Below, in pieces: positions 3,120-64,000 of a stretch of DNA of 64,000 bases. Both the position numbers and the translations under genes were made by a program. The first letter of the stretch is position 1; every line of letters starts with the position of its first letter. The notes under the pieces are model-generated. The model made no database searches, had not been told where the DNA came from, and worked only from the letters and a program-made list of their open reading frames with translations. This DNA is from an uncultured Hormoscilla sp. (GTDB lineage: Bacteria; Cyanobacteriota; Cyanobacteriia; Cyanobacteriales; Desertifilaceae), in contig OZ001293.3 of assembly GCA_963921275.4 (NCBI GenBank), positions 4,448,001 to 4,512,000 of the forward strand, written 5' to 3'.

Positions 3120-3357
3120 GTGCGATTCGTTTAGCGTAAACTAACTTGACACAAGTCAAGGAGGGGGACCGCTACCGGGATTTCGTAAGTCCCGAGAACT
3201 TACAGGTGATGGTGGTGAAAGCCCGCCCCTCCAGGTGCAGGAGTGACAGCACCCTCCCCACGGTAGCGATGGCATCAATCCGTGAAGCGGGAAGGAAAGG
3301 CGCTATGGCTGGGAGCCTAGACCGGTCATCGTCGAGCAAGTAACTATGATGAGCGTA

Positions 3358-4191
<834 letters not shown>

Positions 4192-4554
4192 TAAGCGAAG
4201 GTTTGCAACGTCGTAAAGCCTATCCAGTGTAATAAGGCTGATACACTGGCCCAAAAAGGGAAAGGATACTGGTCATTGGCGGATGTATACCCGACCAATA
4301 AGCACTGACAATAAACCCGGCGTAGAGAACCCGTCTAAGGTTACGACCAATCATCTGTAGGAACGAAGTAACCCGGTTGTAGCACTCTCCATCACCGGTC
4401 GATAGATGGAGTAGCCACCACAGGCGTAACATCTGCTCTCCGGAAGGCAGGACGCAACTGGGGGAGATTGAGTGGAGAAGCAAATGCCTGTCTGTAATGG
4501 ATAGGATAAGCTGACGCCCTCACGGTCTCGTCAATTGTGAAGTTGTAAGTAGTA

Positions 4555-7222
4555 GTGAATATGTCACGGAACTTAGTCGAAAGACAAGAGTATGAATGGA
4601 AGACTGTCGCCTGGCGAAAGCTGGAAAGGATAGTTTTTAAGCTGCAAAAGCGAATTTACAGAGCGGCACTGGAAGGTAATAAGCAGAAGGTTCGTAAGCT
4701 CCAAGGATTACTAAATAGGTCATGGTCCGCGAAGATGATAGCGGTACGGCAGGTAACACAACAAAACCAGGGAAAGAAGACGGCTGGTGTGGATGGTGTG
4801 AAAGCACTGACCCCAAAAGAACGTATCGAACTGGTAGGTCAAATCAAAGTTACTCGAAAGGCGAAGGCAAAAGCCACACGAAGAGTGTGGATACCGAAGC
4901 CACGAAGGGAGGAGAAGCGGCCATTAGGAATACCAACGATGCACGACCGCGCACTTCAGGGATTGGTTAAAGAAGCGCTAGAGCCTGAATGGGAAGCGTA
5001 TATGGAAGCCAATTCCTACGGGTTTAGACCAGGTAGGGGATGTCATGATGCAGTTGCAGCGATATTCGCTAGCATCAGTCAAAAATCGAAATGGGTGTTA
5101 GATGCGGATATTGCGAAGTGTTTCGACGAAATTGACCATTCCGCGCTCCTAAAGAAATTGAATACTACGTCACCAATCCGTAAACAAATACGGGCATGGC
5201 TAAAAGCTGGGGTGATGGACCGGGGAAGGATGGAATCCACAGAAGCCGGAACTCCCCAAGGTGGGGTTATATCTCCATTACTAGCCAATATAGCTTTACA
5301 TGGGCTGGAAGGGGTAGTAATGGGTCTCGCTCACACAAAAAGAGAGAAGGAGAAGTTAACCGTAGTAAGATATGCGGATGACTTTGTGGTAATACATAAT
5401 GACCGGTCGATGATTGAGGAAGCTCAAGGAGTGATTGAGGAGTGGTTGAAGGGAATAGGGCTGGAGCAAAAAGCCGAGAAAACGAAGATATCCCACACAT
5501 TGGAAGGAGAGAGCCCTGGATTTGACTTCTTAGGGTTCAATATCCGACAATATAAAGTAGGGAAACACAGAAGCGGCAAACTCTGTAACGGAACCCCCCT
5601 AGGATTCAAGACCCTAATCAAGCCTAGCGATAAATCCATAAGGAATCATAAAGAGCAGCTATCAGAGATAGTTCGCCGCCATAAAGGGGCACCGCAAACG
5701 GCCTTAATAGCAAGACTAAACCCGATGATAAGGGGATGGAGCAACTATTATAGGACGGTGGTAAGTAAAGAAACTTACAGCTCTATGGATAACTACTTAT
5801 GGAAGTTGTTATGGCGATGGGCAAAGAGAAGACATCCTAACAAAACGGGCAAATGGATTGCTAGTAAGTACTGGGGTATGACCGGGAAAGACCGGTGGAG
5901 GTTCGCTGGCAAGTCTAAAGAAGATGGAGGAATGAAGCTAAACCGATACTCTGAAACTGAAATAATCGGATGGGGTCGAGCCGGGAATCGCTTCCCGACC
6001 CTCCCTTTCGGAACCGGACTTGCGATTTTCACCGCATCCGGCTACTGGGTACTAGGCCCTTTTCATAGGTAGACTTAATAGGAATTACTTCCGTTAGCCC
6101 TTGCCGCCTGTCTTTTCTTCCCTTTCCTGGTTTAGCGAGTGGTTGTTCTGATAACCGTTAGTATCACCATTTTCAAGTCAGTTTTACCAGTTATCCATAC
6201 CTTATCCTCCACTTGCGTTTCGGATTAGTTCCGTGGCTTTTTAGGATTACTCATTCCAGCAGCTTCCTAGTATCACCGACCCACGTCAGCGCTGGCTACC
6301 CAGCATCATCTACATTACTGTAGATGTTATCCCAGGAATTACCCCGGGCATTCGCTTCTTGGGCCATCCCTCCCCCCGTGGCTTGCGCTTAACATCTAAC
6401 TTGTCCTGATGGACAGCACACGAGAGGTTACTTCGTTCCCTAACAACATTTCGCGATACCTTTAGGTCCACACTATACCCCGGGAGCTATTTGAGTACTA
6501 TATTAGCCAGAGTCTAAAACTAATACTAGCTACCATTTCCTTTTTAGGCCAGCGCATATAGCCTTATTTCGCTGGTTCCTTATAACGAGGCTTGCACATG
6601 TTTGCCTGCTCTAACCTTGGATATCTTTCCTAGCGGCGTCACCGGCTTAGGCTGCCAGTTATCCTACATTTGAGTCCTCGCTTAGCACCACGATGATGTC
6701 GCTTCGTAGCACCGAGGACCGGTATCACCCCCGTACCTGGGGGGAGGGGAATTTAACCCCCATGCGGTCAGAGTTCCCGGCTAATGAAACCGGGCTAGCG
6801 TTCCGTGTTTGACCACGTTAGGCTAGAACGAATCGCACAGACACGTAAAGGTTAAGGGGACAGCTAGCCCGTTTGACGGTAATCTGGTTTATTGGAGCAA
6901 AAGACTGAGAAAAAGCCCGGATGTGAGCGCTAGAGTTATCAGACTGCTAAAAGAGCAGGATGGTAAGTGTGTGCACTGCGGACTGAAATTCAAAGATGGC
7001 GACAAATGGGAGGTTGACCATATTCTACCAGTTTCTAAAGGAGGTAAAGACTGGTATACCAACCTACAGTTGCTGCATGATTATTGCCATGATGTAAAGT
7101 CTGCCAGAGATGGTGACAAAGGCCGTATCCATGACAAGGATGGCGAAACTGAGGAGCCGGATGAGGTGAAAGTCTCACGTCCGGTTCTGAAGACGAGTCG
7201 GCGGGGTGACCCGTTGGCTTAG
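4555..7222 (+). pseudogene. Group II intron-encoded protein (RT, X, D, HNH endonuclease) interrupted by an antisense intron
   Basis: RPLGIPT, SYGFRPGR, GTPQGGVISPLLANI, RYADD, GFDFLGF, GWSNYY; after 6838 the frame resumes RHVKVKGTASPFDG...CVHCG...EVDHILP...NLQLLHDYCH. Confidence 0.95.
5968..6838 (-). mobile_element. 871-nt ORF-less group II intron, copy A (antisense inside the RT ORF)
   Basis: Reverse complement of 60792-61662; removal restores ATA ATC|AGA CAC (ETEII-RHVKVK). Confidence 0.95.
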
Positions 7223-7228
7223 TTTAAT

Positions 7229-43718: not shown

Positions 43719-44589
43719 GGATGGGGTCGAGCCGGGAATCGCTTCCCGACCCTCCCTTTCGGAACCGGACTTGCGATTTTCACCGCATCCGGCTACTGGG
43801 TACTAGGCCCTTTTCATAGGTAGACTTAATAGGAATTACTTCCGTTAGCCCTTGCCGCCTGTCTTTTCTTCCCTTTCCTGGTTTAGCGAGTGGTTGTTCT
43901 GATAACCGTTAGTATCACCATTTTCAAGTCAGTTTTACCAGTTATCCATACCTTATCCTCCACTTGCGTTTCGGATTAGTTCCGTGGCTTTTTAGGATTA
44001 CTCATTCCAGCAGCTTCCTAGTATCACCGACCCACGTCAGCGCTGGCTACCCAGCATCATCTACATTACTGTAGATGTTATCCCAGGAATTACCCCGGGC
44101 ATTCGCTTCTTGGGCCATCCCTCCCCCCGTGGCTTGCGCTTAACATCTAACTTGTCCTGATGGACAGCACACGAGAGGTTACTTCGTTCCCTAACAACAT
44201 TTCGCGATACCTTTAGGTCCACACTATACCCCGGGAGCTATTTGAGTACTATATTAGCCAGAGTCTAAAACTAATACTAGCTACCATTTCCTTTTTAGGC
44301 CAGCGCATATAGCCTTATTTCGCTGGTTCCTTATAACGAGGCTTGCACATGTTTGCCTGCTCTAACCTTGGATATCTTTCCTAGCGGCGTCACCGGCTTA
44401 GGCTGCCAGTTATCCTACATTTGAGTCCTCGCTTAGCACCACGATGATGTCGCTTCGTAGCACCGAGGACCGGTGTCACCCCCGTACCTGGGGGGAGGGG
44501 AATTTAACCCCCATGCGGTCAGAGTTCCCGGCTAATGAAACCGGGCTAGCGTTCCGTGTTTGACCACGTTAGGCTAGAACGAATCGCAC
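43719..44589 (-). mobile_element. 871-nt ORF-less group II intron, copy B (intergenic)
   Basis: Near-identical to copies A and C; 5' exon TTTCTTGAGTCT. Confidence 0.95.
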
Positions 44590-60783: not shown

Positions 60784-62227
60784 ATGTCTCTGTGCGATTC
60801 GTTCTAGCCTAACGTGGTCAAACACGGAACGCTAGCCCGGTTTCATTAGCCGGGAACTCTGACCGCATGGGGGTTAAATTCCCCTCCCCCCAGGTACGGG
60901 GGTGACACCGGTCCTCGGTGCTACGAAGCGACATCATCGTGGTGCTAAGCGAGGACTCAAATGTAGGATAACTGGCAGCCTAAGCCGGTGACGCCGCTAG
61001 GAAAGATATCCAAGGTTAGAGCAGGCAAACATGTGCAAGCCTCGTTATAAGGAACCAGCGAAATAAGGCTATATGCGCTGGCCTAAAAAGGAAATGGTAG
61101 CTAGTATTAGTTTTAGACTCTGGCTAATATAGTACTCAAATAGCTCCCGGGGTATAGTGTGGACCTAAAGGTATCGCGAAATGTTGTTAGGGAACGAAGT
61201 AACCTCTCGTGTGCTGTCCATCAGGACAAGTTAGATGTTAAGCGCAAGCCACGGGGGGAGGGATGGCCCAAGAAGCGAATGCCCGGGGTAATTCCTGGGA
61301 TAACATCTACAGTAATGTAGATGATGCTGGGTAGCCAGCGCTGACGTGGGTCGGTGATACTAGGAAGCTGCTGGAATGAGTAATCCTAAAAAGCCACGGA
61401 ACTAATCCGAAACGCAAGTGGAGGATAAGGTATGGATAACTGGTAAAACTGACTTGAAAATGGTGATACTAACGGTTATCAGAACAACCACTCGCTAAAC
61501 CAGGAAAGGGAAGAAAAGACAGGCGGCAAGGGCTAACGGAAGTAATTCCTATTAAGTCTACCTATGAAAAGGGCCTAGTACCCAGTAGCCGGATGCGGTG
61601 AAAATCGCAAGTCCGGTTCCGAAAGGGAGGGTCGGGAAGCGATTCCCGGCTCGACCCCATCCAACCATTGCCGACCTAGAACAACTCCAAACCCAATTGG
61701 CTGATGCCCATCTTGATTACAAGATGGAATTAGTCGATGGTAAAATTATCATTATGGGACTTTCAGATTATCTTTCTGAAGAAATCATCGCTCGATTAAT
61801 CACTTTTCTCAATATCTGGATACTTCCCCGCAAGTTGGGACGAGTCACTGGTTCTTCTGCTGGCTTCAGACTGCCCGATGGCAACTTGCGCGGACCTGAT
61901 GTCTCTTTTGTCCCCGCTGAGAAAATGCGTCAATCTCCTAGGAGTTTTGCGGAAATTGTACCAGACTTGATGTTTGAAGTTAGGTCTTCTACAGATAATG
62001 TTAGACCACTATTACAGAAAATCCAGAGATTTATCGAATTGGGGACGCAAGTTGGCATATTTGTAGACCCCAAAAATTTGACCGTAACTGTTTATCGTCC
62101 TACTGCCGAACCTATTCTGCTCAAAGATGATGATATCTTAACTATACCCGAATTCTTGCCCGGTTGGGAATTGCCCATTGACCAAATCTGGCCTCCAGTT
62201 TTTGCACCAGAAAATATTCAACCGTAA
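60784..62227 (+). CDS. Uma2 family endonuclease split by a sense group II intron (exons 60784-60791 and 61663-62227)
   Basis: ATG TCT CT|A ACC ATT gives MSLTIADLEQLQ...MELVDGKI...GPDVSFV...VPDLMFEVRS. Confidence 0.88.
60792..61662 (+). mobile_element. 871-nt ORF-less group II intron, copy C
   Basis: GTGCGATTCG start; EBS1 hairpin loop AGACTC at 61115-61120; domain V TAGCCGGATGCGGTGAAAATCGCAAGTCCGGTTC; end CTCGACCCCATCC. Confidence 0.95.
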
Positions 62228-62236
62228 AAGCAAAGA

Positions 62237-62357
62237 GGCAGAGCCTCCCAATGGGCGTTACCTGCCGGAGACAGGGAACGAGGGGAACGAGGGGATTTGA
62301 GAGCGGCAGGCAGAGCCTCCCAATGGGCGTTCCCTGCCAGAGACAGGGAACGAGGGG
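62237..62357. repeat. Tandem pair of REP-like units
   Basis: GGCAGAGCCTCCCAATGGGCGTT...AGACAGGGAACGAGGGG twice. Confidence 0.75.
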
Positions 62358-62381: not shown

Positions 62382-63210
62382 TTATGAATCTTTCCTGACT
62401 TTAACAATGGGCATGTCTTCAGGTGCGATCTCCTGGAACCCTAACTTCTTCAGTTTATTGAGGGCTTTTTCTGCTGGAGAATTATCTTCTTCCGCTGGTG
62501 CAACCGCCGCTGTTTCCCAAGTCTGGACGAGTTCAGCTAAGGCGTATTCTAATTGCGCCCCCGGATCTAATGTTACCCAACCTTCGGAGGTCAGTTCCCG
62601 CAGTTCAAAGTGCAGGTGCGGTCCTGTGGAATAGCCGCTGCTGCCCACACTGCCGATTATACTGCCTTGCTTGACTTCTTCTCCAGGTTGGACGAAGATT
62701 TCTGATAGGTGCGCGTACAGGGTTTGTTGAAGGGGTTTCTCTGGTTGGGCATGTTCTAGCACAACTGATAACCCATAGCCTTTCAGGGCGTCCGCGATTG
62801 CGACTTTTCCGGCCAATGCTGCTAACACTGGGGTCCCCGATATCCGTGCCGTGGTGGAACTGTTCCGATCCTGAGATCGGATGGGTCCGCCAACCAAACA
62901 AGGAAGTAATCGGTGAGGGAATTGATAAGGGAAAGATGATGCTATCATTGCCACGATCGGGACGGAGGTTGGGTCGAATCAGCTGATAGTAACTGCGACC
63001 TATGGGCGTTGCATCCCCATATTCGATCTCACTGGGACTGTAACTTGCTGGTCCGAGATTTACTTCCCCCCCTGGTGATTTTTGGCCTTGGCAAGGCCCG
63101 CTGATGCTGCGGCCTCCATACCGGGATGGGAGCTGATTTGGGACGCCAAACCGGTGGCTGGTAACTTGTCCTGGATCTTACGGTCACTGGTGCTGGTGGC
63201 GGGCGGAGCC
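62382..63210 (-). pseudogene. M23 family peptidase, frameshifted and interrupted by an intron
   Basis: FGWRTHPISG..FHHGTDIG (one frame) then TPVLAA...TLYAHLS...GYSTGPHLHFE (another frame). Confidence 0.85.
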
Positions 63211-63821
63211 ACATCGCCGTGGTGCTAAGCGAGGACTCAAATGTAGGATAGCTGGTAGCCTAAACCGGTGACTCCGCGCTTGTTAGATGCCCAAGGTTAG
63301 AATAAGCGAACCTATGTAAACTTCGTAAATGGGAACCGGCGAAATAAGGCTTTATGCGCCGGAGACAAAAGTCAATGTAGTTAGTGTTAGTTTTGTACTT
63401 TGGCTAACATCGTACTCGGATAACTACCGGAGGAAAGTAGGGGCCTAAAGGTATCGTGAAATGATATCAGGGAACGAAGTAACCTCTCGTGAGCTGTCCT
63501 CATATGGACAAGTTAGATGTAAAGCGCAAGCCACGAGGGGAGAGATGGCCCAAGAAGCTAATGCCTGGCGGTGTCTGGAGCATGCCGTATCCCTTGCGGG
63601 AGCGCCAGCCGTTCGCGGCAGCGCGGCGCCAGCCGTGTCCTTCAGGACAAGAGCATGCGGAAGACGCCGGGTAATTCCTATGGATATGCTGACGTGGGTC
63701 GGTGATAGATAGAATCTTTGGGTGAAAGTAGCCTTAAATGTTCTAGACCAGGAGAAATCCTAGGTAGTTAATTTTGGACTAAAGACCTAACCGGGTAAAA
63801 CTTGGAGAACCTAGTAAATTA
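63211..63821 (+). mobile_element. ORF-less-family group II intron, 5'-truncated, interrupted by IS982
   Basis: CGTGGTGCTAAGCGAGGACTCAAATGTAGGATA and GGGAACGAAGTAACCTCTCGTG shared with copy C; no GTGCG start; 3' end not in window. Confidence 0.85.
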
Positions 63822-64000
63822 ACTCAAGTTGCGACCTATAAAAATTGGATACAAAAAGCTATGATAAAGAGAATTATTTTCAACTCTAATCCCTTAGATG
63901 TAACAGCATGAATTGACTTGGGAAACAAATTTGTGATTCGACTAAAACAGGTTTCAACTTGTTTTCTTGTTACTTTTTGTATATATTCAAAACAAGAATA
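63822..64000 (-). mobile_element. IS982 family element (partial, runs off the window)
   Basis: ACTCAAGTTGCGACCTATAAAAATTGG matches the other copies. Confidence 0.92.

Follow-up and report, generated by a model that had tools for sequence, protein, structure and literature searches.

How is a 3' splice site chosen in a group II intron that ends in CC, where the group II consensus is AY (a consensus with published exceptions rather than an absolute rule)? The question is raised by F0, an ORF-less group II intron of 871 nt in an uncultured Hormoscilla sp., found at 60792-61662 (+) of the window, the 64,000-nt stretch of DNA analysed here, which corresponds to C1:4448001-4512000 of a 7.0-Mb genome. 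The intron reads GTGCG...GACCCCATCC; its first bases at 60792 agree with the group II 5' GUGYG, its domain 5 (D5) scores 46.4 bits against Rfam RF00029 (gathering threshold 40), and the longest stop-free frame of the modal copy is 58 codons. About 150 copies are present in the source genome. Three are in the window: at 60792..61662 (+), after the eighth base of a Uma2 gene; at 43719..44589 (−); and at 5968..6838 (−), antisense in the reverse transcriptase (RT) gene of another group II intron. The terminal GACCCCATCC lies at 61653-61662 (+), 43719-43728 (−) and 5968-5977 (−), respectively. A first-pass annotation of this DNA had remarked that the three copies share their end before their flanks diverge, and indeed they are 99.4-100% identical over 871 nt and diverge directly after CC.

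We located F0 3' ends genome-wide with a 56-nt anchor. The four bases after the anchor were ATCC in 146 of 148 copies and ATTC in 2, followed by 123 distinct 3' flanks, in 91 of which the first exon base (+1) is A. The 164 F0 5' ends were preceded by 136 distinct upstream flanks with the consensus GAGTCT at −6 to −1 and CCTTA at −13 to −9. Empty alleles were found in the source genome for 19 of 118 distinct non-tandem F0 sites and all 19 were joined without an extra base; no joins at offsets −2, −1 or +1 to +4 were found for these 118 sites. A slid boundary, with the intron starting 2 nt earlier and ending in AT, was ruled out by the varied 5' flanks together with the empty alleles. Reading frames gave the same answer. 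Over 119 F0 sites, exact removal left a stop-free junction frame of at least 150 codons in 44 site-strand cases (25 sense, 19 antisense), against 9 cases with one base kept (3 sense, 6 antisense) and 8 with two (4 sense, 4 antisense).

The two interrupted genes in the window illustrate this. The Uma2 5' exon runs from the start codon to CT (60784..60791, +; delimited by the frame test, the flanks and congeners) and the 3' exon covers 61663..62227 (+; PF05685, Pfam Uma2 E=1.3e-33, and the frame test). Exact removal of F0 yields a Uma2 protein of 190 aa (MSLTIA...) and an RT of 598 aa (...EIIRHV...), the latter 100% identical over 598 aa to the product of an uninterrupted RT gene copy at C1:2408114-2409907. 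With CC kept, Uma2 falls to 8 aa and the RT to 474 aa, and if an AT end is assumed the Uma2 frame has no upstream Met after the last stop. The earlier claim that only a boundary after CC restores both frames therefore stands. The same annotation had named two observations that would count against this boundary, namely retention of CC at the junction and its presence in empty alleles of relatives. The former is contradicted at the DNA level, since both genes would be frameshifted. The latter is contradicted by the 19 empty alleles of the source genome and by the Uma2 orthologues of three congeners (G002, G003 and G004), which begin with MSLTIA, have no CC and comprise 190, 190 and 191 codons. 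In addition, a contig from run X8 (run type unknown, depth 2, 22 letters on its short side) places the 5' exon directly against 61663. We therefore gave next to no credence to the reading in which the intron ends at a canonical AU and CC is part of the target site or stays in the mRNA. The Rfam model match does stop at 61660, but CC is constant in 146 of 148 copies over the 123 flanks and missing from all 19 empty alleles and all three congeneric Uma2 alleles, its retention frameshifts both genes, and the intron base that pairs with the last base (γ, see below) is a G; the AU-end reading is, by these comparisons, already refuted at the DNA level. We regard the CC boundary of F0 as real and, as far as genomic DNA can tell, confirmed.

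Several further features of the copies and their surroundings were recorded. F0 has inserted into its own domain 4 (D4; site equivalent to window 61560/61561) at C1:1326652, 5180973 and 6411229, and its copies lie head to tail, as tandem and triple arrays, near C1:5447656-5449400 and C1:825000-826700; the three head-to-tail junctions read ATCC|GTGCG. Clustered multi-base changes recur among intron copies (GA to TC, GGA to TCC, GAA to TCC, GCAA to TTGC), several of them equivalent to tiny inversions. Downstream of the Uma2 gene, dispersed short repeats at 62230-62350 are matched by unrelated contigs of runs X1 and X2, and another intron of the same clade, whose match begins with the segment 63204-63568, leaves the end of the window, apparently with an insertion (window about 63200 to 64000).

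The catalytic 3' domains of F0 are well formed. D5 (61587..61618, +), identified by its Rfam score and pair counts, carries the AGC catalytic triad at 61587 and a 2-nt bulge, and 98% of its alignment cells are paired. Domain 6 (D6; 61625..61657, +) has a basal stem of 3 bp (GGG/CCC), an A opposite G-A and an upper stem of 10 bp, and is followed by the tail AUCC (61659..61662, +). A D5/D6 alignment of 12 sequences, drawn from nine genomes, has 99% of its cells paired. Changes on both sides are seen at 11 of 26 pairs overall and at 7 of 13 in D6, but the three basal pairs never vary, so that covariation is silent on the basal stem. The A at 61654 (+) is invariant and unpaired in the folds, as is usual for the bulged A of a group II D6, and is predicted to serve as the branch adenosine, at −9, which puts it 8 nt ahead of the 3' splice site. 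The only other A, 61659, varies across the aligned sequences, which leads to a predicted spacer of 8 nt. The first-pass annotation had placed the branch A about 9 nt from the end, and A61654 is likely to be that base. The branch nucleophile could in principle be this second A of F0, the A of AUCC (−4), or some other base, which we consider very improbable given that sister families carry G, U or A at position 61659, in contrast to the constant, bulged A61654. The predicted spacer falls outside the distances reported in PMC9294222, which are 6-7 nt in group II introns and 7 in subgroup IIB2.

Two other positions around D5 are worth recording. The base before the AGC triad (61586) is U and not G in F0 and its sister families, creating a U-C mismatch at the base of D5; the G is kept in some congeners and in outside relatives. 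The conserved GA after D5 (61621-61622) is TC in most F0 copies and is kept in 20 of 122 full-length copies, the copy at 60792-61662 among them.

The first-pass annotation had also treated the end of F0, with its missing penultimate A, as setting this intron apart from its relatives. The missing A is a fact, the end being CC, but the contrast with relatives does not survive a wider survey. A D5/D6 profile (nhmmer) gave 443 sites in the source genome, of which 48 without a branch motif were set aside, and 390 clade ends carry A-CCCC. The tail that follows is ATCC in 147, GACT in 109, GACC in 69 and TAAT in 41, with 14 rarer forms. Its third, penultimate base is C in 339 ends, A in 47 and T in 4, and its fourth is a pyrimidine in 387 of the 390. 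An A-CCCC followed by a 4-nt tail was seen in every multi-copy family whose end is fixed by several flanks; in single-copy families an end was assumed from the alignment. Relatives had been described as ending in TAAC, TAAT and CCCCGAC. The first two are correct; the third is one base short, since the sister ORF-less family F1, represented in the window at 3358..4192 (+), ends in GACT and not GAC in 70 of 72 copies over 58 distinct flanks, with empty alleles at offset 0 for 7 sites (one of the 7 also fits −1). It follows that this relative likewise has an 8-nt spacer and no penultimate A. Judged from these genomic ends, the penultimate C and the predicted long spacer are clade-wide and not special to F0.

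Given such an end, we asked which bases specify it. The alignment comprised 35 family representatives of 780-1010 nt drawn from 74 clusters, those not represented being nested or truncated apart from one that was dropped, and every intron column was scanned for covariation with tail and exon bases. The last intron base covaries best with 61261, as G-C in 15 families, A-U in 19 and G-U in 1, although these and the other family counts are not independent events because the 35 families are related and mosaic. Position 61261 opens the linker GGA (61261..61263, +) between the D2 and D3 hairpins, which fold on either side, and on this basis is γ in a standard RGA J2/3, a G in F0 with C61662, the terminal base of the tail, as its partner γ'. 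Of the individual elements, 26 that lacked a single motif match were set aside; among the 283 counted, γ is complementary to the fourth tail base in 281, to the third in 171 and to the second in 1. An alternative J2/3 at GC[A/U]GA near 61341, in which γ-γ' would be broken, was ruled out by the covariation scan and the D2/D3 folds. For the first exon base, the column with the highest mutual information is 61155 (+; U), identified as EBS3, which is Watson-Crick with it in 31 of 35 families; its partner here, IBS3, is A61663 (+).

The same scan recovered EBS1 and, through 61051, EBS2, and these serve as a positive control. EBS1 (AGACUC, 61115..61120, +) is Watson-Crick between 61115 and exon −1 in 24 of 35 families and between 61117 and exon −3 in 27 of 35. 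A fold of the EBS1 region by itself was no better than shuffled sequences (z 0.97), so the assignment of EBS1 comes from covariation. It makes 4 of 6 pairs with IBS1 at this locus (60786-60791, +) and 6 of 6 with the IBS1 consensus of the F0 family, GAGTCT. EBS2 (UAAGG, 61048..61052, +) complements the IBS2 consensus CCTTA at −13 to −9, and 61051 is Watson-Crick with exon −12 in 29 of 35. Covariation and flank consensus together show that F0 has the three exon pairings of subgroup IIB (EBS1-IBS1, EBS2-IBS2 and EBS3-IBS3) as well as the group II γ-γ' pair between J2/3 and the last base.

According to Costa 2022 (PMC9294222), γ-γ' and EBS3-IBS3 are the determinants of the 3' site. Since in this clade γ-γ' is Watson-Crick in 34 of 35 families, and pairs in nearly all individual copies, and EBS3-IBS3 is preserved as well, the proposal that 3' splice-site selection differs in this lineage is not upheld. 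That proposal would entail a different device, for example new contacts of the AUCC tail replacing that between the first and the penultimate base. Of the 390 clade ends, 343 lack a penultimate A, with GUGCG unchanged at the 5' end, and the minimum-energy fold allows pairing between the F0 tail and the GA that follows D5. However, most copies have TC in place of that GA, the penultimate base has no convincing covariation partner in any intron column (highest mutual information 0.43, Watson-Crick in 1 of 35), and the two established pairings are intact and covarying, all of which makes such a device quite improbable.

We then considered to which kind of intron F0 belongs. In sequence and fold it has the structural hallmarks of IIB2 (CL2) introns as set out in PMC4649490 and PMC8643678, including the defining feature of PMC8643678 at 60803..60853 (+; fold z −2.7), and the RG motif at the D4-D5 junction, as cited in PMC13026550, is present as AG at 61584-61585. 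Like the cyanobacterial IIB2 (CL2) introns described in PMC8643678 and PMC9294222 it begins with GUGCGAUUC and has two extra stem-loops at the base of D1; EBS1, EBS2, EBS3 and an RGA J2/3 are also shared, and some of these introns have non-AY ends. It differs from them in having no ORF, an AUCC tail, U for G before the AGC triad and about 150 near-identical copies, and in its spacer of 8 nt, found in F0 and many cyanobacterial relatives, where PMC9294222 states 7 nt for IIB2; for this last reason we class F0 as an IIB2 variant and not a standard member. In a quick, unfinished tree, the RTs of other introns with the D6 type of F0, itself ORF-less, group among curated IIB2 RTs.

Curated IIB2 ends were obtained by placing the Table S3 coordinates of Monachello 2021 (PMC8643678) on RefSeq plasmid records, where the 5' ends fall exactly on GTGYG. 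The intron of A. variabilis plasmid A ends in AUC with a 7-nt spacer, N.sp.I4 in AUC with a 6-nt spacer, and that of A. marina pREB6 in AAC, and two uncurated plasmid IIB2 introns have an apparent ACU end with a matching γ A. We also considered that N.sp.I4 might end in AUCC; EBS3 judged by eye favours neither end and the published end stands.

A strict form of the D6 pattern had no match in a set of 400 other genomes from the phylum, and a looser form occurs in 63 of 401 genomes of the order and 25 of 142 genera. Among the groups with at least three distinct flanks (60 regions and 29 loci), 6 of 8 conserve CCCC-UAAY and 2 of 8 CCCU-ACC, and many CCCC-UAAY-type introns of other cyanobacteria carry RT genes. 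The wide distribution of A-CCCC-UAAY suggests that the 8-nt spacer is old and common, and that it usually goes with a normal AY end. Among the matches listed, AUCC and AGCC tails were found only in genomes of this genus, and of at least 16 public records with an AKCC tail pattern, 14 are from Hormoscilla and 2 are actinobacterial with no D5/D6 listed. In the literature that we searched we found neither 8-nt spacers nor introns of this genus, though Simon 2008, Toor 2001, Costa 2016 and the Zimmerly database may record 8-nt spacers or CC/CU ends.

None of the 390 clade ends in the source genome belongs to an intron with its own RT gene; three apparent cases are RT introns nested in D4. The window itself contains a group II RT/maturase gene (4555..7222, +; TIGR04416 355 bits), the one restored to 598 aa when the antisense F0 is taken out. 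It sits in an intron at 3120-7228 that ends in A-GUUU-AAU with a 7-nt spacer, and its product is a candidate for the type of protein acting in trans on F0. RT frames of at least 540 codons number 20, of which 18 are in A-GUUU-AAY introns, 1 is in an A-GCU-AAC intron and 1 has no adjacent D5/D6; in a quick tree, eighteen of these RTs cluster together (support 87) and are separate from those encoded by 8-nt-spacer introns. That no RT gene was found in the 8-nt-spacer introns of this genome, and that 18 of its 20 long RTs are of the other lineage, implies mobilisation in trans across lineages, and on gene content and phylogeny the F0 clade is likely to be mobilised by the A-GUUU-AAY RT lineage, a different lineage of IIB2.

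The RT introns and the overall intron load have features of their own. The intron at 3120-7228 forms a nested trio, holding F1 (3358-4192) in sense and F0 (5968-6838) in antisense orientation. In RNA run X1, which comes from a diverged relative, one contig leaves out precisely the stretch 3120-7228. In 17 of the 20 long RT frames the frame passes through D5 and D6 and stops at a TAG that contains the predicted branch A; the TAG at window 7220-7222 is one such stop, shared in kind by 16 other RT genes of the source genome, and the outlier RT intron has the same overlap of RT frame and D6. The 7-Mb genome holds about 390 ORF-less clade introns and about 60 A-GUUU-AAY ends, an intron load well above 101, the per-species maximum given in bioRxiv 2021.09.28.462093.

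A precedent for the CC end is RmInt1 of Sinorhizobium meliloti, which according to Chillon 2014 (PMC4238363) ends in CC, forms lariats and retains γ-γ' and EBS3-IBS3. F0 resembles it in its CC end, G-C γ-γ' pair, EBS3-IBS3 pairing and mobility, and differs in belonging to a separate lineage and having no RT of its own. In RmInt1, changing the penultimate C to A gives wild-type-like behaviour, U or G impair the second step, and the CC end is associated with aberrant circles (PMC4238363). That paper calls the penultimate pyrimidine of RmInt1 unique among group II introns, a statement contradicted by the genomes studied here. For the unusual spacer, the nearest parallels are B.c.I4, with a 53/56-nt extension, and B.a.I2, with an alternative site 4 nt downstream (PMC9294222). 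The branch-to-3'-site distance departs from 6-7 nt in these introns as in F0, and for B.a.I2 γ-γ' and EBS3-IBS3 are stated still to set the site. F0, by contrast, exceeds that distance by 1 nt, has no additional domain and gives no indication of a second 3' site. The abundance of F0 recalls TeI3 of Thermosynechococcus elongatus (Mohr 2010, PMC2882425), which also has many ORF-less copies in EBS-defined families within one cyanobacterial genome. TeI3 is, however, a IIB1 intron and near kin of ORF-containing introns in the same genome, whereas for the F0 clade no RT-encoding member was found among the 390 ends in the source genome.

Our preferred reading, to which we assign a probability of roughly three in four, is that F0 is a protein-less IIB2-type intron and mobile unit ending in AUCC, with a lengthened D6 tail and a relaxed penultimate base, which is likely to splice and reverse splice in the ordinary way, its 3' site probably set by γ-γ' and EBS3-IBS3 and its branch point predicted 8 nt upstream. 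What the sequence itself establishes is the DNA boundary, the D5/D6 fold, and the fact that EBS1, EBS2, EBS3 and γ complement their partners and covary with them. The lariat would form at A61654. The 8-nt spacer would have been inherited from an A-CCCC-UAAY ancestor with a longer D6 base, and the tail would then have drifted within this genus to GACU, GACC, AACC, AGCC and AUCC, as might be expected because Watson-Crick pairing holds only its last base. RT introns belonging to another IIB2 lineage would provide the maturase and RT in trans.

Counted against ordinary splicing are the 8-nt spacer, beyond the 6-7 nt (7 for IIB2) of PMC9294222, the second-step defects with U or G and the circles of RmInt1, and a contig of run X7 (type unknown) that joins the last base of the intron to its first. 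No contig of the RNA runs X1 and X2, both from diverged relatives, covers F0, an absence that carries no weight of its own. A rival reading keeps the boundary and the choice of the 3' site by γ' and IBS3, but has excision shifted towards hydrolysis or true circles by the long spacer and the weak base of D6; the 8-nt spacer, the 3-bp basal stem and the X7 contig speak for it. Circles and linear forms have been reported in vivo for Trichodesmium introns (PMC4649490), and likewise for RmInt1. On the other hand, the 901-nt X7 contig, which joins 61662 to 60792, has the same last-to-first join as the three genomic tandem junctions and was discarded as a sign of an RNA circle, being indistinguishable from a tandem DNA junction. 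The depth of X7 (32 on F0, about 20-30 on F1 and near zero on single-copy DNA) fits low-coverage DNA. Moreover, neither the bulged A nor its helix varies from genus to genus, and about 150 exact full-length insertions fit lariat reverse splicing, the established chemistry of retrohoming. We thus judge a shift to hydrolysis or circles unlikely, and favour ordinary splicing and reverse splicing of F0.

A bolder proposal is that these introns represent an undescribed, widespread IIB2 branch with an 8-nt spacer, in which GGG/CCCC slips by one base between the two steps, freeing the penultimate base in this genus from its contact with the first base, and whose ORF-less copies spread by the hundreds through the RTs of another lineage. 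Three Gs facing four Cs offer two registers, which on paper would permit a one-base strand shift; PMC9294222 describes such a shift between steps as absent from IIB2 introns. We put this forward tentatively and with more doubt than belief. If the slip were real, the 18 tail variants in one genome would amount to a ready-made set of natural mutants for the study of second-step docking.

The CC end and the 8-nt spacer of F0 are real departures from the textbook, yet both have relatives or precedents, and the determinants of the 3' site look canonical from sequence conservation, with no new way of choosing a 3' site shown. In practice, a tool that stops at AY will call these ends 1-2 nt too soon, as Rfam does at 61660, and intact host genes consequently seem frameshifted; at 25 of 119 F0 sites a long sense frame is recovered once the intron is removed exactly. 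For group II introns more broadly, the published spacer range of 6-7 nt would be widened to 8 if the predicted branch point is correct. A penultimate C is evidently compatible with highly successful and precise mobility, which runs counter to the uniqueness claimed for RmInt1 in PMC4238363.
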